DNA of 64,000 bases from a virus. Numbering within the stretch: the first letter of the stretch is position 1; each line of letters starts with the position of its first letter. The stretch spans positions 32,001-96,000 of IMG/VR virus record IMGVR_UViG_3300045988_180675, one strand, 5' to 3'. A program made the translations under genes and the position numbers. Of the stretch, positions 1 to 43,267 are shown in pieces. The notes beneath the pieces were generated by a model that worked only from the letters and a program-made list of their open reading frames with translations, was not told where the DNA came from and searched no databases.

Positions 1-2650
1 CTTCATCCGTATGAATGAGTGTTACAACATCTTGTGAGCGTAAGCCTCGAATACTTCCTGTGAACTGGAAATCTTCGCTAGAGGATGAATTAGTAAGGTT
101 CTTTGCGTATGTTGCTGAGTATACATCTGAAATATCATTTGTTAATACAGCTCTATTTGTTTTACCTGTTTTCGCTGTGTAAACCTTTGAAGTGAAATCT
201 TGGTTTGTCTTGCCGCCTTCATTGTTGATGAGGTTGTCATCTTCGAAGATCTTAATTGATGGCGTACAAACAATCTTATATCCATCCACCAATGACTTAA
301 CATCTGTTTCTTTTACCTTGTATTTAACCTGATCAACACCTTCAAAGACAAACTTTACTGCAATTGTTTTTGAAATGTTTGTCGATACAGAGGCTAGTCC
401 GTTTTCGTCAGATGTGAAAGTTTCTTCGTATTGGGTTGCTTGGTTTACATATTTGTATGTTGTATTAGGTGTTAATCCGCTAAATTCTACAGTGATATTA
501 AAGTATGTATCTTCGTGTGTTCCAGTGTATGTTTCTGGCAAATGCTTTTCAACCACAATCTCTGTCGTGTTTGCTGTTGTTGGTGGAACATCCTTTTTAT
601 TTGTGAATACAACTTCTTTATCAGTATCTAATACTCCTGATGTATTTTCTGCACCTGTTTGTGTCCAACCAGTCTGTGGTTGTTCTTGGATTGTGTAGTT
701 TACGTTTACTGGTAATTCAATTTCCGTTGACGAATTTCCATTGATTCTTACAACTGCTTCGCCATTATTGAAGATTACGTTATTAAACTTTTGAACACCA
801 GAAACACCTTCGCCTGTTAATTTAATGTTGAAGGCAAATGATGTTCCATCCTCGATATCAACATTCTTTGTAATTTTCAGCTTTCTTGTCGTTGTAACGA
901 CATTGTTGTATTCATTTATAACTGTTGTCTCAAACTTACCTGTCTTATCGTCATAATTTATGATTGAAACCTTTTTGCCATTGATTTCTTTCGTTGCATC
1001 TACACGTCTGTAGTTCGGATTGTCATCTTCAACCAAATAGTGTTCTTGTGTCTTGTCAATGATTGGCATGACGTATGTCATTGAGCCATCTGAATTCTTG
1101 ATCCACTTGCTATCATCTGTTTCGTAATAGCGTCCACCATTTGCGGTTAAATCGAATCCCTTTGCCTTGGTTTCTCGAACCCAATACCCAGCGATATTAT
1201 TCATATCCGTAGGTTTTGTCGCATACTTTTCTTCTGCTACTGGTGAACCGTTTGTGTTGTATTTCAGGATCCATCTTCCAGTGTATTTATCTGATTCTTC
1301 AAACAGGTTAAAAGCTGATGTTAATCCATAACCAATGTTGTTGAATACAGTATTTTCTGATGTCTTAACGATTTGGAGTCCCTTTTTTCTTACAACTACA
1401 TTGTCACTTGGAAGAAGATTTGGATCTGAATAATTTGAGAAGTCAAAACTTGTTTGTGATCCAAGACCATAGATATAATCTACAACCATATTAGCTAGAT
1501 ATGGTTTTCTTCCGTTTGCATCCACATGATTCGGTTGTGGCATTTTAGATGTATCCAGATTTGCATATAAAGAGAATGCTCCAGAGAATCTTCCTGTAAA
1601 TTGAGAAAAATCAAATTTAGCACCAAGAATCTCGGCGTTTTGCATGAATCCTCCGTAGTCAGGATATGATGAAGGATTTATATTTTCTTGTGTAATTCCT
1701 GTTAAATCAATTACATGCTTCGTATTTTTATATACTTGGAATGCAAAGTTTGCATTCTCTATTTTTGATATTCTCTGTCTTGAAAATAGATCTTTAAAGT
1801 CAACTGAGGAGCCACTAAACATGGAATCAATGCGAGTTACTTCTGTAAGATCTAATGAGGAAAGATTTACTGTTAAGCTTTCGTCACCTGCATTTGGATC
1901 CCAAGCTGACATAAACATCTCTCTAGCATTTCTTGGTTGCATCTTTAGATTTTCCAAGCCTTCAATTTCTTTTACGGAGGCTCTTGCAAACATTGCCTCA
2001 GTGTTACCAAACTTCAACTTGGACCAATTCTCTCCAAATTTAATCTTTCTTGCACGTGCTCCTCTAAACAAGAAATTTAGACCTACATAATCAGAGAAGT
2101 TGGCTCCATCTGGAGTTTCTGTTCTTCCTTTTGCGTCCAATACTGTTACATGAGATAAATCAATCATGGCAGCAGATCCAGCGAATCTCGAAACTTCTTT
2201 TATATTGTCGTTCATTAGTTCGCTGAAGAATATCCAAGCCCAACCATTTAAAGTGCGATGTGGAATATAATCGCTTGGACAGATTCCTATTGTTTTATCA
2301 AAATCTAAGGTTGAAATTCCATTGAACCATGGATACTTTGTTTCTCTATCCTGCCTAATTTGTTCCATAGCACCAAAAGCCCAAGCTGGCTTTATTGCTT
2401 CTAAGCTTCCACTTCCTGCTACAAATCTTGTGTAGCCGTCTTCATAAACTTCAATTTTAGCTGTTGTTGCTACGCCGTCTGAAAACTGGTCCAGAGGCAA
2501 TGATATCTTCAACTCTCCATGTGCAGCTAGTGGTAATTCAGAAGAAAGAATAGGACTACTACCACTTCCTTCTTCTGCGTGTACCGAACTAGGCAATAGA
2601 GTAATGATAAATAATGTTGCTATAAACAGTTTCAATATTTTTTTTATCAT
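1..2650 (-). CDS. Secreted surface protein (signal peptide, DUF285-like repeat region, then Cna-B/pilin-like beta domains); 3' end outside window
   Basis: The minus-strand frame is open from ATG at 2650 (RBS AGGAAAGGAAATGAA) to the window edge. It is absent from the ORF track because it is truncated. My translation begins MIKKILKLFIATLFIITLLPSSVHAEE. Repeated ..MF.. segments follow (NTEAMFARAS, NAREMFMSA, RIDSMFSGS), then beta-rich segments (NVNYTIQEQPQTGW). Confidence 0.7.
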   Translation of the reverse strand, partial: MIKKILKLFIATLFIITLLPSSVHAEEGSGSSPILSSELPLAAHGELKISLPLDQFSDGVATTAKIEVYEDGYTRFVAGSGSLEAIKPAWAFGAMEQIRQDRETKYPWFNGISTLDFDKTIGICPSDYIPHRTLNGWAWIFFSELMNDNIKEVSRFAGSAAMIDLSHVTVLDAKGRTETPDGANFSDYVGLNFLFRGARARKIKFGENWSKLKFGNTEAMFARASVKEIEGLENLKMQPRNAREMFMSAWDPNAGDESLTVNLSSLDLTEVTRIDSMFSGSSVDFKDLFSRQRISKIENANFAFQVYKNTKHVIDLTGITQENINPSSYPDYGGFMQNAEILGAKFDFSQFTGRFSGAFSLYANLDTSKMPQPNHVDANGRKPYLANMVVDYIYGLGSQTSFDFSNYSDPNLLPSDNVVVRKKGLQIVKTSENTVFNNIGYGLTSAFNLFEESDKYTGRWILKYNTNGSPVAEEKYATKPTDMNNIAGYWVRETKAKGFDLTANGGRYYETDDSKWIKNSDGSMTYVMPIIDKTQEHYLVEDDNPNYRRVDATKEINGKKVSIINYDDKTGKFETTVINEYNNVVTTTRKLKITKNVDIEDGTSFAFNIKLTGEGVSGVQKFNNVIFNNGEAVVRINGNSSTEIELPVNVNYTIQEQPQTGWTQTGAENTSGVLDTDKEVVFTNKKDVPPTTANTTEIVVEKHLPETYTGTHEDTYFNITVEFSGLTPNTTYKYVNQATQYEETFTSDENGLASVSTNISKTIAVKFVFEGVDQVKYKVKETDVKSLVDGYKIVCTPSIKIFEDDNLINNEGGKTNQDFTSKVYTAKTGKTNRAVLTNDISDVYSATYAKNLTNSSSSEDFQFTGSIRGLRSQDVVTLIHTDE

Positions 2651-25639: not shown

Positions 25640-25801
25640 TACTTATCTTCCTTTCCATACTCTTATTATACTACTATATTTTCTTTTTAGCAAGTATTGT
25701 TAAGACTTTAACTTTGATTGGATCTAAAAAAAATAATATATTTTTATCAAATTTCTAAATAATTTCTTGCATATACTGTTATGGCATGCTAATATATAGG
25801 A

Positions 25802-25914
25802 GCAGGGGGACATACATCAGCCATCCCTATATTGATAAACATTACCCCCTGTATTTCCAACTTTCCCCAAAGAGTTAGAAAAAAGAAGAAGGTTATAGTC
25901 GCCTTCTTTTTTTT
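25802..25914 (+). ncRNA. Candidate sRNA (about 113 nt) with C-rich motifs
   Basis: Promoter TTGCAT (25767-25772), 17 nt, TAATAT (25790-25795). Stem CAGGGGG (25803-25809) / CCCCCTG (25845-25851). Second hairpin AACTTT-CCCC-AAAGAGTT. Terminator AGAAGG/CCTTCT plus T8 (25886-25914). No RBS-preceded ORF. Confidence 0.4.
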
Positions 25915-25972
25915 ATTTGCTTTGTAGAAAATATTGTGATATAATACAATACAGATAAGAAGGGAAGGAAAT

Positions 25973-30552: not shown

Positions 30553-31002
30553 ATGTTATTTGAAAGAAAAGACATAAAGAAGATTATCGAGATTAGCGAA
30601 AGAATTGCCGACGGGAATAAGTCGTTATCAGCTCAAGATGTCGTAGCGTTTGACTCATTTTATTCAAGCGTTAAGCTTGGTGTTGAGGTGAAGGTTGCAG
30701 AAATTGCCAACGCTTTCTATCCGATCACAAAGCATAAGTTTTTTGAACTAAGAGATTTCTGCATTGTTGACGATATGGTTAATGTTGCTTGTTATGACCT
30801 GGATGTGAATGTGTTTACATTCTCATTTCCAATCAGGATGTTTAACATGAGCAAGAAGGAAATCGAAAGTCACACATTCGACTTATGTCGTCGTCAACTC
30901 AGAAACAAGAAGAAGGAATTAGAAGAAAAAGAAAAAGAAGTAGAAATGCTAAAACAGAAGATTTCTGATTTGGAACAGGTTTGCCAATCTAAAGAATATT
31001 AG
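30553..31002 (+). CDS. Family B paralog
   Basis: 149 aa: ...LSAQDVVAFDSFYSSV...FYPITKHKF...FSFPIRMFNMSKKEIESH...coiled coil. Terminator at 31010-31048. Confidence 0.7.
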   Translation: MLFERKDIKKIIEISERIADGNKSLSAQDVVAFDSFYSSVKLGVEVKVAEIANAFYPITKHKFFELRDFCIVDDMVNVACYDLDVNVFTFSFPIRMFNMSKKEIESHTFDLCRRQLRNKKKELEEKEKEVEMLKQKISDLEQVCQSKEY

Positions 31003-31083: not shown

Positions 31084-31130
31084 GCAAACTATTATTTGCG
31101 TTATACTGTTATATATGCTATAATTTAGTT

Positions 31131-31225
31131 AGTCGATCTACCGAGGGTAGAAACGATCTCGAAAGACGAGCTAAACTAATTTCTGTAGGACGCAGCAGAC
31201 ACGGTAACTCGTCTTTTGCCTTTTT
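31131..31225 (+). ncRNA. sRNA-like unit 1 (paralog of 32540-32634)
   Basis: Promoter TTGCGT (31096-31101), 17 nt, TATAAT (31119-31124). Hairpin CTACC-GAG-GGTAG flanked by GATC...AAACGATC. Outer stem GACGAG/CTCGTC encloses hairpin TTCTG-TAGGACGCAG-CAGA. T-runs at 31213-31225. No ORF. Confidence 0.5.
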
Positions 31226-31240
31226 AAGTAACAAATTTGG

Positions 31241-31415
31241 TTGGACTAAAATTAGACCAAATTCAGACCAATAGTAGACTAAGCTTAGACTAGGACCAGT
31301 CTAAAATCGGACTAGAATTAGGGCTATTTCAGACCAAGACTAGACCGATACCAAACTAAATCCAGACTGTGATTAGGATGTATTCAGACTACAACTAGAC
31401 CGAAATCAGGACTTA
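31241..31415 (+). repeat. Array of about 16 direct 11-bp repeats (core T.AGACYA), strictly helically phased
   Basis: The RGAC cores start at 31243, 31254, 31265, 31276, 31287, 31309, 31321, 31331, 31342, 31353, 31364, 31376, 31386, 31397 and 31409. Spacing is 10-12 bp, with one position skipped or inverted near 31298. Confidence 0.8.
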
Positions 31416-31701
31416 TCATCATCTTGATCGTGAATCATTGTGGATCAACGTAAGAAAACAAAAGAAGCTGATCCAGGAGGAAACAAGAGAGAACAAAAAG
31501 GACCAATGATAAGAAATCAAATAGGAAGCAATAAACGATCACAGGAACAATACAAAGTAGAGATATAAAAGAAAAAAGGTGGAAGAACAATGCAGCCACC
31601 TTTTTATATTTTATGTGTGTGCGTTAAGAGATGCTCGCCCAGCCAGAATACAACCATGAAGGCATCCGTAATACAAAAATATACAATATAGCAAAACAAC
31701 C

Positions 31702-32253
31702 CTATAAGGAACTAATATAAGCCACAACCCCATTACGCAACATGGGAACATTATCGCTCATACCAAATAGACAATGATCGCAATTCTCTATAAGACCTTC
31801 TAAAGACAACATATACTTCAATCGTAAAGAGGTAAACAATATAGAACTTGTAAAAATATCCTTAGCAACCACAGAAGGACTTCTTAATGGACCTATATCT
31901 GCCAATACACTCTCTTTAGGTTTTCTATACATCGTAAACTTATCCCCAGGCTTAACAATATAGTTAGTTAGATTCATAATTGGATTCAAGTATATATTGG
32001 AGCAACCTTTCCTATCAACCAATGTTGTTTTATTTTCTGTAATCATATTTGCGATCGTCTTTTCGATAATGATGAACAAAGATTGGAAGTCCACCTTCGT
32101 TTCAGGAAAACAATGGTGATAAGACTCAATACCAAAAGTTTCCTTTAATTCATTAAAAAAGAATTTGTCACTAAAGTCCATTCCGAATAGTTGAGTAGTA
32201 AATACAGTTTCTTCCGTTTTTTCATCTTTCAAGATCAGTTCTATTTTTCTCAT
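31702..32253 (-). CDS. Hypothetical protein; the only solid ORF inside the repeat-rich region
   Basis: 183-aa ORF. Promoter TTGAGA, 17 nt, TATAAT upstream. RBS AAAGAGAGAAGAAAAT. Bidirectional terminator at 31572-31606. No motif recognised. Confidence 0.6.
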   Translation of the reverse strand: MRKIELILKDEKTEETVFTTQLFGMDFSDKFFFNELKETFGIESYHHCFPETKVDFQSLFIIIEKTIANMITENKTTLVDRKGCSNIYLNPIMNLTNYIVKPGDKFTMYRKPKESVLADIGPLRSPSVVAKDIFTSSILFTSLRLKYMLSLEGLIENCDHCLFGMSDNVPMLRNGVVAYISSL

Positions 32254-32539
32254 ATTTTCTTCTCTCTTTCTTTACCCAAATTATATCATATTCTTCATAT
32301 TTTCTCAAAAGAAAATAAAATAGAAAGACACAAGATATGCACAAACAAATAGATCCAAACCTCGTTCCCTGTTTCTTTCTTAGCTCTTCTTTTTTTTATT
32401 AAAAGAGAGAGAATAGGAAAGTGGTAAGAAAAGGTATACGCAAGAAAGGATACAGGAAGAACAAAGGAAGAACACAGGAAATTTAACTCAGTCAAAATTA
32501 CAGCTTGCCATATACTGTTATTCCTGTTATACTTTAAGT

Positions 32540-32634
32540 AGCTGATCTACCAAGGGTAGAAACAGATCCGAGAAACCACTTTAAAACTTCCTGTAAGACG
32601 CAGCAGGAAAGATAAGGTGGTTCCTTGTTTTTTA
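32540..32634 (+). ncRNA. sRNA-like unit 2 (paralog of 31131-31225)
   Basis: Promoter TTGCCA (32505-32510), 17 nt, TATACT (32528-32533). Same GATCTACC.AGGGTAGAAAC.GATC element. Outer stem AACCAC/GTGGTT, inner TTCCTG-TAAGACGCAG-CAGGAA. T6 at 32627-32633. Confidence 0.5.
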
Positions 32635-32890
32635 TATAAAGAAATAAGAATAGGAGAAGTCGGACATGAGAACTCTCCAGTTTTTCTCTTGCCCCTCTTC
32701 TTTTTTTAGAAAAGAAAGAAATAAGGAAAAGGCAGGGAAAACATAAGGGAGGTATATCAGAACGAAATAATATGGATCCAGATTATGTAATCAGTGGAAC
32801 GGGAATTACAGGATCCAACCGTGAGTCCATATATTGTTTGCTATATCTTAGGTTGCTGCATTACTCTACTTTATCTTTATTTATATAATA

Positions 32891-33575
32891 TTGGATTCCT
32901 CTACTATACCAATATACAGTATGTACAGTTATTATATTGGGCTATTCTAGTAGTCCATATTTATTATTCAGTATCGTTTATCTTGGGCTACTCTAATAGA
33001 ACAAAATTTTACAATAAGCCCATTATTCTCTATGGTTCTATCTTTTGTTTTTGGTTTGCTCTAGTAGCCCAGTATTATAACGATCTATATTTATACTTGG
33101 TCTACTCTATCGACCCAGTATCCTTTATTTATGCAAATTATTTTTTGGGCTTATCTACTAACCCATATTCTTATATATTACCTATATTTTTGGGCTGATC
33201 TACTGGACCAACTTCATTCTTGGTTTTCTCTATCAACCCATTATTTATCCAGATCAAACTAATTCTTGGGCTATTCTATCAGCCCATACTTTTTCTATTC
33301 TTGGTTTTCTCTATAAGACCAATCTCATTACACTGGGCTACTTAAGTATACCAGTCTATACAGATTCTTGGGCTACTAGACGGAACCATTTTTCTTATCT
33401 TAGTTTTCTTATTTCTTGGGCTACTCTACTATCCATATTATTTTCTTGATCTACTTCTTTTTGGGTCGCTATAGCAGACCAATATTTTATATATCTCTTT
33501 ATTTTCTTGGGCTACTATACGAGTCCAATTTTTATTCTTTAATATCTTTAATCTTGGGCTACTATAGCAGACCGT
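32891..33575 (+). repeat. Array of about 17 degenerate 21-22-bp inverted-repeat sites (consensus TTGGGCTACTCTA..AG.CCA), mostly spaced 44-49 bp apart, with some at about 30-35 bp
   Basis: Sites start near 32891, 32937, 32983, 33051, 33097, 33145, 33190, 33220, 33266, 33301, 33333, 33368, 33416, 33461, 33507 and 33554, plus a degenerate or inverted one near 33016. Example: TTGGTCTACTCTATCGACCCA, where TGGTC and GACCA are complementary. Confidence 0.8.
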
Positions 33576-34885
33576 GTTTTTAGGTGATTTTTGGAAAACG
33601 TGCCCTGCTCGCTGCTCTCTGGCTCTATGCAATGTTTATTTTCGCCCACTTCCGCCTCCCCTTTGGGGTTCGTTCGCAGCTCGCTTTTTCTTTTTTATAC
33701 TTCTTATTTTCCTATCCATCTTCTTGTTATTATCTTATACAGGAAAATCTACGTGATCACCGTGATGAAAGTGGTGCAAAATGGGATTTTAAACGGAAAA
33801 AGAGAGAAATATCAAGAAAACTAAAGAGAAAGTCCTTATATTCTCCTTTATTTAAAGGGAAAAAAGAAAGAAAGTATCGAAAAAGTAAACTTCTTACTAG
33901 ATTTCGGTATATTTTCTTAACAAATTCCCTTATTTTCAGCTTCTTCTTACTAATTTCCTACTGAATTCCGATTCTTAAAAAAGGAAAAAAGAAAGAAAAA
34001 ATGTCGTTTCTGAATACAAAAATATCGAATTATGTCAAATTCATCCCTATTTTAAGGAAGAAATGCCTATTCTTGTCCGTTCTCTCTTTATTTTCAGGAA
34101 GCCGTTGTGTTTTCCCATGTCTTTTCTGTATCTTTTTCTTATGTTTGAAAAGAAATTAACAGGAAAAGGGTAGAGAAGTTACCCAAGAATGCTTAAATTT
34201 ATCACTTAATTCTATGATCGTAATGAGAAAAGGCGAGATAAGATGCGAAAAAAGTGCAGAAATCGCCTATTTTACCCCTTCGACCTAGGTTTAAAAGGAA
34301 AAGTGGGGCTAGAGCATATTGTTACTAAGTAGAAAGCCTTTGTGTTTTCCTGTGTTTTTTCTTTTTATTTTCCCTTGTTTAAAAAGAAGAAGAAAGGAAA
34401 AAGGAAATTCATAGGCAAAAGTGCTGGAATGCACTTTCGCTCAAACTTATATTCTCAAAACTTATGAAGAAAACTAGGAAATAAAGAAGGAAGATACAGG
34501 AGTGACCTAGGTATCAATGATATTTAAGTTATGATGAAGCATTGGAAGAAGAAAAAGAAGGTACTGGAGAAATTAAAGTAGAGATTATGGTTATGTCGTA
34601 GATGGGGTTTATGATTTCCTTTTATTTTCTTTTGTTTGGGGTTTGATTATTCATTGATACTTCGGCATACAGGGAAGCCACTAGATTTTCTTGAAGTGAT
34701 CTCGAATTATTTCTTTCGTTTGAAAAGAATAAGATACGGAAGAGAAAAAGATATTATTTCGTATCATAGGTTTCTTTTGCTTTTGCCTGCACTACACGGT
34801 GTTGGACGCCTGTGAGTTAAGTGTTAATACTTGCTTATTAAGATGAAAATAGTGCAAAAAATAAACAGTATTTTATGTAAATTCT

Positions 34886-34919
34886 GCGACAATACATATA
34901 CTCAATATGTAAATGTCAC
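34886..34919. repeat. Imperfect hairpin homologous to the candidate oriT hairpin, located downstream of mob
   Basis: GCGACA-AT-ACATAT-ACTCA-ATATGT-AA-TGTCAC. Compare GTGACA-AT-ACATAT...ATGTCAC at 35910-35943. Confidence 0.5.
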
Positions 34920-35022
34920 ACATAGTTTTCTTTGCAGTTACTATTTTATATTCTTTTAAGAATATGTTTTGGAGTATTTTTATATTCTCTATGGAAAGCA
35001 TTTTTATATTCTAGTTAGCAAA

Positions 35023-35053
35023 TAAAAAAGGAAGATATTTGATATTATCTTCC
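35023..35053 (-). terminator. Rho-independent terminator overlapping the mob stop codon
   Basis: GGAAGATA (35030-35037) / TATCTTCC (35046-35053), followed by TTTTTT on the minus strand. Confidence 0.6.
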
Positions 35054-35863
35054 TGTGAATTCTGATAAAGCTTGTCTATTTTTGCTTTCTTTATCACTAT
35101 GTTCTTGTCTAAGTTTTTTAGCTCTTTCACGTTCTTCTTGGATAGCTTTATTGATGAAATCCATCTTGCTTAGATGCTCTCGTTTCATTGGAACACGGTC
35201 AATCATCAAGCCTAAACTCTGACATATCTCACAGAATTTTTCTCTGATCATAGCTGTGTAGGTGATCAGTCTGTTGTTGAATCTTGACTCTGGTTCATCC
35301 GCAAATGGAAGTGGAATACCAGCTTGTTCAAGTGCTTTTTCCTTTCCGATCTCAAGTCTAGTAGTGCCATCAGGATTACGCTCCTTATAAACAAAAATTT
35401 TACGTTCGTGAATATGTGGAGTTGACTCATCAAGATGTAAAGCTGAATCGAGAACGATAACACGACCTTTTGTGATTTGCTTTTCATACTCTGCCAACTG
35501 CTTATAGGCTTCAGATAATTTATCTGCATCTGGAAAGTCATATAAGTTTCCGATCTGGATAATACTTTCCGTAGGTCTGTATCTTGATGACTTACGGAAT
35601 TGATCCATCGTCATAAGCCTATCCTTTTTTCTGATTTTTCTGACTTTTTCATTTCTAAATTCTAAAGCATCTGCAAAGTGTTCTTCATAAAATCGTTTCT
35701 CAGCAGCCTCAAAGTCGTCTGCCATTTCTGGATAAAAGCACTCATACACATTATCAGAAACTCTTTCTTGGATGACATGAGGAGATTCATTTAAATCATA
35801 ATTTCGACAATTATGGTTTGGATTTCCCTCCCATTTTTGCCCATTGTGAATTGATACTTTCAT
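35045..35863 (-). CDS. mob: MobV-family relaxase (Pre/Mob plasmid recombination enzyme)
   Basis: Start at MKVSIHNGQKW (ATG 35863, RBS AAGAGG). N-terminal NHNCRNYDL (HxxR-type motif I). SALHLDESTPHIHERKIF is the HxDE...PHxH motif, nearly identical to the MobM-type HLDESTPHMH as I recall it. Confidence 0.8.
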   Translation of the reverse strand: MKVSIHNGQKWEGNPNHNCRNYDLNESPHVIQERVSDNVYECFYPEMADDFEAAEKRFYEEHFADALEFRNEKVRKIRKKDRLMTMDQFRKSSRYRPTESIIQIGNLYDFPDADKLSEAYKQLAEYEKQITKGRVIVLDSALHLDESTPHIHERKIFVYKERNPDGTTRLEIGKEKALEQAGIPLPFADEPESRFNNRLITYTAMIREKFCEICQSLGLMIDRVPMKREHLSKMDFINKAIQEERERAKKLRQEHSDKESKNRQALSEFTGR

Positions 35864-35891
35864 TTTAAATAACCTCTTTTCTCTAGTAAGG

Positions 35892-35943
35892 AGTATACCA
35901 CATAAAAAAAGTTGTGACAATACATATATATAATGTCACAACT
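35892..35943 (-). promoter_or_regulatory. mob promoter overlapping a perfect 10-bp-stem hairpin (candidate oriT / RSA site)
   Basis: Minus strand: TTGTCA (35915-35920), 17 nt, TATACT (35892-35897). Inverted repeat AGTTGTGACA (35910-35919) / TGTCACAACT (35934-35943) with a 14-nt AT loop. Confidence 0.45.
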
Positions 35944-42273: not shown

Positions 42274-43098
42274 TTAGAATGGTAAATCATCTGACGTAAT
42301 GTCAAAATTATTTGCGTAATAATCTCCACCTGTAATAGCATTAAACTGAGCTTCACTCATCTGATCTGCAACTGGTTGCTGAACAGGAGTCTGTACCTGT
42401 GGCTGTGGCTGATATGTCTGTGCCATTTGCTGTGGTTGAGCTGTTGGCTGCTGGTACATCTGCTGAGCTACTGGTTGCTGATTTGCTTGGACAGGCTGTT
42501 GCCCCTTCTTTCTAACAATTACTGGAGTAGCAGCAATAACGATACCTAAGTTATTGAATGCTTTGCCGTCTTCTTTAGTTGTCTTGTAAACGGATAAATA
42601 TCCACTCACTGCAATTAAATCACCTACTTGATAGATTGTTCTATCCAAATTTTCGAGTAATTTCTTACTAAAAGAAGCAAACATAAATATCGTCTTTGGG
42701 TTTTCTTTGCTACCATAATTTAAAGCAAATGAAAAACCAGTTGGGAACAATCTTGCAACTGTTCCAACAAAGAATCCTGCCGCTTTATCATCTCCTCCTG
42801 GAACTAATGTGACGCTGTTGGCATTAACCCTGTAATATGTTAAGCCATCTTTACCTTCATCAGATGATAAATAACCTGCTACAGCAACAGGGGTGCCTTT
42901 TTTTGCAAAGCGTTCAAGATCTGACGCAGATCTACCATCAAATACTGAAACATTAAAAAATGATGCATTTCCAGTTTCATTTTGGTCATTTGATTTGTTG
43001 ACAGCCATACTAAAGTGAGCACACTTCTTGCCATCTTTTGTTGTTGATACTTTGATCTCTGAAGCTACGTTTCCTGATACTAAAATACTATTTGACAT
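42274..43098 (-). CDS. ssb: Single-stranded DNA-binding protein with two OB-fold-like halves and a Q/P-rich tail ending DDLPF
   Basis: Start at MSNSILVSGNVASE (ATG 43098, RBS AGGAGGAAAATAAA). First half: ...FFNVSVFDGRSA...GTPVAVAGYL. Second half: ...IFMFASFSKKLLENL..GDLIAVSGYLSVYK. The tail QQPVAQQMYQQP...ends in DDLPF. Confidence 0.7.
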   Translation of the reverse strand: MSNSILVSGNVASEIKVSTTKDGKKCAHFSMAVNKSNDQNETGNASFFNVSVFDGRSASDLERFAKKGTPVAVAGYLSSDEGKDGLTYYRVNANSVTLVPGGDDKAAGFFVGTVARLFPTGFSFALNYGSKENPKTIFMFASFSKKLLENLDRTIYQVGDLIAVSGYLSVYKTTKEDGKAFNNLGIVIAATPVIVRKKGQQPVQANQQPVAQQMYQQPTAQPQQMAQTYQPQPQVQTPVQQPVADQMSEAQFNAITGGDYYANNFDITSDDLPF

Positions 43099-43267
43099 TT
43101 TATTTTCCTCCTTTGCCCTCTTTTTGGGACTATCATAACAAATGTCTAATTTATTTGATATTTTCCATGTCATCAAATAAATACAATTCAATTATGTAAT
43201 AAAAATAAAATTAAAAAAATGAATTTGTAGCAAATTTGAGTAGATATAGCATAATATATACGAAAGG

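Follow-up and report, generated by a model that had tools for sequence, protein, structure and literature searches.

The 64-kb stretch of DNA analysed here (IMG/VR record IMGVR_UViG_3300045988_180675, positions 32,001 to 96,000; referred to here as the window, to which coordinates refer) carries two paralogous units, each with a predicted promoter, a small structured RNA and a terminator. We found that both RNAs are structured RNAs under selection, and that it is one strand that is folded. Judged from sequence, the hairpin at their 5' end is a member of an uncatalogued RNA module that occurs in many unrelated phages and is absent from Rfam 15. We propose, with a probability of roughly 0.4, that the two units encode self-terminated, trans-acting small RNAs (sRNAs) that are built on this widespread phage module and use a GACGCAG loop for recognition. 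Small structured RNAs are familiar from phages and plasmids; this family is new to Rfam 15.

Unit 1 (31096-31228, + strand) and unit 2 (32505-32637, + strand) are the sole two copies in the window and can be aligned to each other across promoter, body and tail. The 20-mer GATCTACCRAGGGTAGAAAC occurs exactly twice, at 31135 and 32544, and was absent from 100 shuffles; the 16-mer CTGTARGACGCAGCAG, at 31183 and 32591, likewise marks both units. When every window position was scored with a covariance model built from the family, unit 2 reached 114.5 bits and unit 1 reached 108.1 bits, with the next best position at 16.7 bits, and a purely structural scan for the bulged-hairpin geometry returned only chance hairpins elsewhere. 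The original prediction, made from the letters of the window, had placed and composed the units correctly, since the promoters, stems and T-runs can be read from the sequence as it stated. The promoters, TTGCGT-17-TATAAT in unit 1 and TTGCCA-17-TATACT in unit 2, align to each other, match the consensus at 10 or more of 12 positions and carry an extended -10 element. We found no open reading frame (ORF) inside either unit, in line with the earlier statement that the units lack a coding partner. Overall, the consensus signals of an intrinsically terminated small RNA gene are present in both units, namely a sigma-70/SigA-type promoter, no ORF, and a hairpin followed by U4-6.

Each unit is predicted to fold into a 5' bulged hairpin, followed by a long hairpin and a U-run, with folding energies of -28.3 kcal/mol for unit 1 and -32.8 kcal/mol for unit 2 (z = -2.4 and -4.5, respectively, relative to dinucleotide shuffles). 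In the 5' hairpin, a lower stem (CUG/CAG, or UCG/CGA in unit 1) is followed by an internal loop with A opposite AA and by the upper stem UCUACC/GGUAGA. This hairpin had been described with an AAAC bulge. The conserved hairpin stands; the bulge does not, as two of its As belong to the A-opposite-AA internal loop and the C pairs, together with the next two bases, in the lower stem. That lower stem is 3-4 bp long and itself covaries between UCG/CGA and CUG/CAG.

We next considered related loci, which were obtained via homologues of orf183, the ORF between the two units (13 loci), and via a DNA pattern in metagenomes (28 loci). Both units are found again, in 57 copies, at 36 related metagenome loci, and nearly every locus that reaches far enough carries both. 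Unit copies share 84-93% identity with their orthologue and approximately 75% with their paralogue. Given these identities and the presence of both units nearly everywhere, the duplication predates the diversification of the lineage, with both copies kept. The paralogues differ in their outer stem (GACGAG/CTCGTC in unit 1, AACCAC/GTGGTT in unit 2) and in their inner stem (UCUG/CAGA in unit 1, UUCCUG/CAGGAA in unit 2), and it was from such differences that paralogous promoter-to-terminator units under selection for RNA structure had originally been proposed. Covariation in the relatives bears this out and extends it. The check that had been suggested, a covariance model combined with a metagenome search, yielded homologues in which the structure is preserved: once the 57 copies were aligned to the model, 98.3% of cells were paired and 13 of the 23 pairs showed compensatory changes, while registers slid by 1-3 columns gave only 36-60% pairing. 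In a plain MAFFT alignment of 17 sequences, RNAalifold recovered the fold, with double changes at 7 of 23 pairs. CUG/CAG in the inner stem gave way to CUA/UAG more than once, in a unit-2 copy (L018) and, independently, in unit-1 copies (L039 and L033), and both forms of the lower stem of the 5' hairpin, UCG/CGA and CUG/CAG, are found within the unit-1 group.

G-U and U-G pairs are frequent on the + strand (e.g., 40 of 55 at one position). On the other strand they would turn into C-A mismatches, which identifies the strand read from the promoter as the folded one. The 10-nt loop TA(G/A)GACGCAG had been put forward as conserved. Its GACGCAG core is unpaired and invariant in 57 of 57 copies; the 5' part of the loop and its length (8-12 nt) vary, as do the loop flanks and the stems. 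GAAAC is also invariant among the unit copies. Within the relatives, the units share approximately 86% identity compared to 77-79% in the surrounding arrays.

The fold is not private to this element. We found that a 5' hairpin of this kind, together with a G+C-rich hairpin, occurs in many unrelated phage contigs without nearby repeat arrays. IMG/VR was scanned with a loose pattern and then with a covariance model built only from the element's units, which scored 29-44 bits in unrelated viral contigs. A strict pattern with 19 fixed bases, CTGATCTAC-N5-GTAGAAACAG, matched 29 IMG/VR loci, where we estimate that fewer than one would be expected by chance, on contigs of 34-61% G+C. These loci also share AG before CUG, U(A/U)AC after CAG, and a G+C-rich hairpin of 8-15 bp that starts 2-6 nt downstream whatever the G+C content of the genome. 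A second scan, which asked whether the helix is constrained in sequence or in structure, fixed only the junction (TAGCTGA-N15-AACAGTAAC). It returned 88 distinct matches, 22 of which form at least 4 of 5 pairs within N15. The loop CA.G. is present in 19 of the 22 paired matches and in 2 of the 66 others, and a strong hairpin lies immediately downstream in 16 of the 22 and in 9 of the 66. Ten different upper helices were found among these module members: UCUAC/GUAGA, UGUGC/GCACA, UCUCC/GGAGA, UCCAC/GUGGA, CCUAC/GUAGG, UGUAC/GUACA, UUGCC/GGUAA, UCAAC/GUUGA, UCGGC/GCCGA and UGUUC/GGACA. In an alignment of 44 module sequences, a set biased by the patterns and by the pairing filter, compensatory changes occur at 7 of 9 pairs and 98% of cells are paired, compared to 16-49% in shifted registers; the independent evidence lies in the co-occurring features that were not used for selection. 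The module consensus reads (U)UAG-CUG-A-[U-N3-C]-CANGN-[G-N3-A]-AA-CAG-UAAC, followed by the G+C-rich hairpin and then often by (U)[A/U]GC. Both units fit this consensus, except that unit 1 has UCG/CGA in place of CUG/CAG.

The module is often associated with tRNA genes. In 11 of 26 distinct strict-pattern loci it lies inside, or heads, a tRNA cluster on the same strand, including a permuted transfer-messenger RNA (tmRNA) gene, and it directly abuts the 3' end of a tRNA (L168) or the 5' end of the next tRNA (L100). In L117 (2741-3046) the module is the intervening segment of a permuted two-piece tmRNA (RF04321, 89.6 bits), placed right after the CCA of the acceptor piece. Elsewhere the module follows a promoter-like site (L063 and L095) or stands between a stop codon and a terminator (L127, L141 and L167). 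A canonical boxA lies after hairpin 2 in L095 (UGCUCUUUAA, approximately 31 nt downstream of the module) and in L113 (UGUUCUUUAA, approximately 38 nt, and also GCUCUUAA), both within or near phage tRNA clusters. This amounts to 2 of 24 viral loci compared to 0.4 expected in the scanned windows, and in the other module loci hairpin 2 is often followed by a (U)[A/U]GC(U) motif. In the window, UGCUCUUUAACAA-like boxA sequences are limited to the U-rich tails, UGCCUUUUUAAG in unit 1 and UUGUUUUUUAUAU in unit 2, which are indistinguishable from terminator U-runs. No protein family near the module was common across the loci or shared with the window, and the module was not found in E. coli genomes or PLSDB plasmids. 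Compared by eye with the alignments, readings of the module as a hammerhead, K-turn, group II domain 5, UAA/GAN or sarcin-ricin junction each fail at a defining position. A search of phages, E. coli genomes and plasmids with the 36-nt module consensus gave only weak variant matches, in Geobacillus, Vibrio and Staphylococcus phages, where they are unannotated. One hairpin variant, GCUGAUCUACCAUGUGUAGAAUCAGC, lies in Geobacillus phage vB_GthS_PK3.6 between a RinA-like gene and gp60 (L171, 2220-2750). This intergenic region of 650 nt is G+C-rich, unannotated and without an Rfam match, and it might hold another structured RNA.

Rfam 15 gave no matches at the gathering score across the whole window and none at E<=10 for the units, which upholds the earlier view that the fold is not a named family. 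For the module, Rfam returned nothing relevant in nine viral loci at the gathering score or in two at E<=10; its matches there were tRNAs and the one permuted tmRNA. Neither the region nor either unit matched plasmids (PLSDB) or phages (INPHARED) by megablast or blastn, and the Rfam check that had been proposed gave no match to a plasmid copy-control RNA. First pattern scans, which were over-strict, returned no matches in viral and genome collections, and a Streptomyces match from a second genome pattern scan was dismissed as chance, as the covariance model did not confirm it. Literature searches by sequence string did not find the family and returned primers or nothing.

We found that the unit promoters share a 10-mer, ATACTGTTAT, with at least nine other promoter-like sites in the window. 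The 64 kb contain 11 exact copies of it, and 23 copies with at most one mismatch compared to 7.8 expected. In almost every case the 10-mer precedes a gene start and is placed 0-4 nt upstream of a TATAAT-like hexamer, and the genes behind it include those for SSB, SecA, a metallophosphatase and a GIY-YIG protein, among others. Several of these sites lack a TTGACA-like -35 element. Our data suggest that ATACTGTTAT sites point to a global regulator or sigma-like factor encoded by the element. Since the motif marks an element-wide promoter class, its conservation in the units does not indicate an operator specific to the sRNAs; the sRNA genes are part of the general transcription programme of the element, which this signature makes testable. 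A third promoter-to-terminator unit without a convincing ORF lies at 25762-25915 (+) and begins TTGCAT-ATACTGTTAT-...-TGCTAATAT. Next come approximately 110 nt with a CAGGGGG/CCCCCUG helix, and after them a terminator, AAGAAGG-N9-CCTTCTTTTTTTT. The sequence is unrelated to the two paralogous units, and it could encode another small RNA.

Each unit in the window is followed by a repeat array, as had been noted, and in relatives an AGAC-type array follows nearly all unit-1 copies while a TGGGCT-type array follows most unit-2 copies. The accompanying suggestion that the units gate transcription into the arrays is weakened by our data. In several relatives (L008/L009, L041, L003 and others), 1-2 kb of cargo genes separate unit 2 from array 2, and these genes carry their own ATACTGTTAT promoter and ribosome-binding site. 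The cargo of L008/L009 comprises two genes, of 143 and 273 amino acids, and is co-oriented there and in L041. Furthermore, an IS605-type TnpB element abuts the unit-2 promoter spacer in L039 and L033 and replaces the -35 region, and the 5' half of unit 1 is replaced in L008; the neighbourhood of unit 2 is an insertion hot spot in relatives. No alternative (antiterminator) pairing is kept between the paralogues. Because the genes inserted after unit 2 bring their own promoters and no antiterminator pairing is conserved, we reason that the unit terminator acts as a real boundary and that adjacency to an array is dispensable for the RNA. The link between units and arrays is loose, and the arrays are neighbours that can be separated from unit 2 in relatives.

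We hypothesize that the element-type promoter, TTGnnn-ATACTGTTAT-n3-TGnTATAAT, would start transcription a few bases before UAG. The bulged hairpin would fold first and the long second hairpin next, with the base of the latter and the U-run forming an intrinsic terminator. In this lineage-specific elaboration the module would have gained a strong promoter, and hairpin 2 would have been lengthened into a terminator capped by the invariant GACGCAG. Both RNAs would be released at their own terminators and might act in trans as stable small RNAs, with the GACGCAG loop providing sequence-specific recognition by loop-loop pairing, seed pairing or protein binding. We would place their target beyond the 64-kb window, on another part of the element of approximately 150-206 kb or in the host. 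The module itself may be a compact folding or docking platform for a partner that is conserved across bacteria. In the module, an invariant junction and loop are combined with freely covarying helices and with a hairpin 2 that is G+C-rich in every case but has no fixed sequence. This combination suggests a compact tertiary fold, with possible docking of the A-rich junction into the minor groove of hairpin 2.

Several observations weigh against this hypothesis. The second hairpin of the members in tRNA clusters usually lacks a U-run, so termination is not part of the general module, which may act inside longer transcripts. In most relatives the units lie just upstream of an array, and their function could be local and in cis. 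Transcription start, transcription stop and RNA stability are deduced from consensus signals, and the percentages of paired cells are inflated in both alignments, since the 57 copies were fitted to the model and the 44 sequences were chosen by pattern and pairing. The search for complements of the loop, which the original prediction had called for, gave none beyond chance within the window. A single further exact CTGCGTC is present there, inside an SSB-like gene, and chance could account for it. At that site (42911-42929, - strand, in the gene at 42274-43191), the mRNA-sense sequence GGUAGAUCUGCGUCAGAUC joins the loop complement CUGCGUC(A) to a complement of a 5'-hairpin strand, GGUAGAUC. The 7-mer alone is chance-compatible; its adjacency to the 5'-hairpin complement is curious.

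If true, the proposal of self-terminated, trans-acting sRNAs would provide an entry point to an uncatalogued phage RNA module beyond a private sRNA pair of one element. This module would have an invariant junction, covarying helices, no partner protein and a marked association with tRNA and tmRNA genes. The non-tRNA RNAs of phage tRNA regions have been unexplained for decades. The module is short enough for direct biochemistry and reporter tests, and the two RNAs, as the most conserved features of a large non-coding maintenance region, would offer handles on the replication or segregation of the element.

The main rival, which we consider unlikely, is a cis-acting RNA of the put, nut or rrn-leader kind that, by itself or together with Nus factors, would alter RNA polymerase during transcription. 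Polymerase would then resist pausing and termination and pass the hairpin of the unit into the arrays and a 1.4-kb non-coding stretch beyond them, or, in phages, into tRNA clusters. The layout parallels that of HK022 putL/putR (PMC9378689), both units point into long non-coding DNA, and the module heads or sits in untranslated tRNA clusters and is also found between stop codon and terminator. Hosts of 34-61% G+C and the lack of a linked protein would fit a universal partner such as RNA polymerase or Nus factors, and the two boxA cases, with (U)[A/U]GC(U) often present elsewhere, might point the same way. However, the second hairpin with its U6 here resembles an efficient intrinsic terminator, the downstream cargo genes have their own promoters, boxA is present at only 2 of 24 loci with 0.4 expected, and no sequence similarity to put, EAR or canT (452 nt) was established. 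In a broader form that we regard as rather improbable, the module would be a new, phylum-spanning class of RNA of phages and mobile elements that needs no phage protein to bind a universal host machine (RNA polymerase or Nus being favoured). Put-like, it would keep polymerase moving across untranslated, highly structured DNA and so drive tRNA and tmRNA clusters, and here the arrays and the non-coding region. We also asked whether the RNAs might be plasmid-type countertranscripts, antisense to leftward transcripts into orf183 or across the arrays, that control replication, partition or copy number in the manner of RNAI, CopA or RNAIII. Antisense control RNAs typically are stable hairpins that expose a loop. 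The large non-coding region beside iteron- or centromere-like arrays and a gene for a MobV-like relaxase would suit such a role, as would the position of unit 2 upstream of orf183 on the opposite strand. Yet the top promoter prediction for orf183 (32308-32280, with 11 of 12 positions matching the consensus) falls downstream of unit 2, so that orf183 mRNA would not overlap it, and unit 1 faces an operon that is terminated. Neither an ORF nor a predicted promoter yields an overlapping transcript on the opposite strand, the neighbourhood contains no recognisable Rep or Par protein, phages carry the 5' module without such a context, and cis-antisense pairing would not need an invariant loop in paralogues with drifting stems. 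Countertranscripts are therefore, in our judgement, improbable.

We give still less weight to the RNAs as mimics of a CRISPR repeat, either as a solitary repeat unit (an RNA anti-CRISPR) or as a CRISPR RNA-like molecule that sequesters or redirects Cas proteins. With GAAAC after it, the hairpin is reminiscent of type I, III and VI-D repeats at their 3' ends, and on the opposite strand UUUCUAC-N5-GUAGAU is close to the handle of the Cas12a repeat. This Cas12a reading was rejected, since U-G pairs and co-orientation with tRNA genes favour the other strand. Promoter, hairpin and tail correspond to the layout of RacrIF1, and solitary repeat units are found on viruses and plasmids (PMC10651486). 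Against such mimicry, a covarying lower stem closes the hairpin, which is unexpected for a repeat with a free spacer, and the upper helix is free while the junction is fixed across phages, the opposite of what a mimic tied to one Cas protein would show. In addition, a search of IMG/VR for tandem arrays of the hairpin came back empty, none of the scanned ORFs proved to be a cas gene, and the hosts span 34-61% G+C. The explanation that we rate lowest, and hardly credible, is a site that acts at the DNA level, such as a palindrome bound by a protein, an origin or nick site, or the terminus of a mobile element. TCTAC-N5-GTAGA is palindromic, the region is rich in protein-binding repeats, and (U)AGC often flanks the phage module on both sides, as an inserted mini-element might. 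A DNA site would leave unexplained that the helices covary, that G-U and U-G pairs occur on one strand only in the element and the phage families alike, that the A-opposite-AA internal loop is asymmetric and invariant, and that the orientation is consistent with promoters and tRNA genes.

Table 1. Features of the two sRNA units and their surroundings; coordinates are those of the window unless a related locus is named.
Feature	Coordinates	Strand	Description
Promoter-like site, unit 1	31096..31124	+	TTGCGT, 17-nt spacer with ATACTGTTAT, extended -10 TGCTATAAT; kept in relatives
Small RNA 1 (predicted)	31128..31228	+	approximately 95-100 nt; predicted fold, 108.1-bit model match, orthologues, covariation
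5' bulged hairpin, RNA 1	31132-31157	+	predicted
Terminator hairpin, RNA 1	31160-31218	+	predicted; U-rich tail to approximately 31225
GACGCAG, apical loop of RNA 1	31189..31195	+	invariant in 57/57 copies, both paralogues
Array 1	31240..31415	.	16 repeats in strict 11-bp register, consensus nnYAGACYAAn; iteron-/centromere-like
orf183	31702..32253	-	between the units; family limited to this element lineage
Promoter-like site, unit 2	32505..32533	+	TTGCCA, spacer with ATACTGTTAT, TGTTATACT; kept in relatives
Small RNA 2 (predicted)	32537..32637	+	predicted fold (z = -4.5), 114.5-bit model match, covariation
5' bulged hairpin, RNA 2	32542-32565	+	predicted
Terminator hairpin, RNA 2	32569-32627	+	predicted; U6 tail
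GACGCAG, apical loop of RNA 2	32597..32603	+	invariant in all copies
Array 2	32937..33575	.	approximately 16 imperfect 20-nt palindromes (TGGGCTACTCTAnTAGnCCA), period approximately 46 bp
MobV-like relaxase	35045-35920	-	
Exact ATACTGTTAT copies	10257(-), 15295(-), 25773(+), 31103(+), 32512(+), 36758(-), 39889(+), 47401(-), 47427(-), 55515(-), 59302(-)		
Insertion locus, L008	2883-4216		
Insertion locus, L041	~640-2300		
Insertion loci, L039 and L033	4247-5560 (L039)		

Both units lie in a gene-poor stretch of approximately 4 kb. A terminated + strand operon ends at 31002 and is followed by unit 1, array 1, orf183 on the - strand, unit 2, array 2 and a 1.4-kb non-coding stretch. The inverted pairs of array 2 read TGGnCTA-N6-TAGnCCA and the direct repeats of array 1 read YAGACYA. 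The array-2 half-site TAGnCCA/TGGnCTA resembles the array-1 repeat, and one DNA-binding protein may read both arrays. In layout we take array 1 to be similar to parC of R1 (11-bp iterons) and array 2 to sopC of F (43-bp repeats, each with a palindrome), and the array-2 core GGCTACTCTAATAG presumably recalls the nick region of the pT181 family. Among relatives, the non-coding stretch at 33600-35040, which spans approximately 1.4 kb and has no conserved ORF, shows 91-95% identity compared to 84-89% in neighbouring coding DNA. It includes a G+C-rich patch (33600-33690), has no PLSDB match and is a candidate origin or long non-coding RNA. We dropped orf183 as a functional lead: it has no Pfam, PHROGs or NCBIfam match and no distant relatives among 1.84 billion representative proteins, and its AlphaFold model is of low confidence (predicted local distance difference test, pLDDT, 56). 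Its 104 homologues, at 77-93% identity, are all metagenomic, on contigs of up to approximately 205 kb.

The G+C content of the window is 33-38%. Its recognisable genes encode LPXTG pilins and adhesins, a sortase, a SecA paralogue, two SSB-like proteins, a RecJ-like nuclease, a PIN-PhoH protein, a primase with DUF3854 and a VirB11/T2SSE-type ATPase; most ORFs have no recognised family. No structural or virion genes were recognised in the 64 kb, and PHROGs searches with the large ORFs gave DNA-metabolism matches only. The element is known from metagenome assemblies only, on contigs of approximately 150-206 kb, and its pilins are of Gram-positive type. IMG/VR, too, lists relatives among its viral genomes (e.g., a contig of 178,493 nt), and the element was not found in GTDB representative genomes, PLSDB or INPHARED. 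Inocles, a group of oral elements, were considered as its identity, which was not established.

Several known systems share features with the units or the module. Small ribozymes are common in phage genomes near tRNAs, and the hammerhead core (CUGANGA ... GAAA) is similar to the units in having CUGAU before the hairpin and GAAAC after it. We rejected a hammerhead because G8 and A9 are absent (CUGA-U(stem) rather than CUGAUGA), G12 is paired, and there is no stem I/III or cleavage-site geometry; the Rfam hammerhead models gave no match even at E<=10. Small stable phage RNAs such as T4 species 1 and 2 RNAs and P1 c4 RNA are embedded in tRNA clusters or processed by RNase P. The module is similar in being a tRNA-sized structured RNA among phage tRNA genes of the same strand, and this location suggests that module RNAs are presumably released by tRNA-processing enzymes. 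No sequence or family link between them was shown, the module is matched by neither the C4 nor the tRNA model of Rfam, and the units differ in having their own promoter and terminator and no tRNA genes in the window.

Among plasmid systems, ColE1 RNAI, R1 CopA, pIP501 RNAIII and pT181 RNAI/II are small, structured, constitutive and self-terminated RNAs of a maintenance region with a loop for kissing. These copy-control RNAs are antisense to a rep leader, whereas no gene or predicted transcript overlaps the units, which have no Rfam match and no similarity to any PLSDB plasmid. Racr and other solitary CRISPR repeat units are promoter-driven short RNAs on mobile elements with a repeat-like 5' hairpin and a tail (PMC10651486). 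In contrast, the hairpin of the units is closed by a covarying lower stem, its helix is variable while its junction is fixed, and no matching CRISPR array or cas gene was found. HK022 putL and putR are two paralogous RNAs of approximately 70 nt, each with two stem-loops with bulges, that lie just after strong promoters and have no dedicated protein gene (PMC9378689). Stem II of put is not an intrinsic terminator, whereas the units end in a hairpin and a U-run, and known put sequences are confined to HK022-like enterobacterial phages while the module spans hosts of 34-61% G+C, a comparison made by layout only. The units are similar to put in their two copies, their two stem-loops with bulges, their promoter-proximal place and their lack of a dedicated protein.

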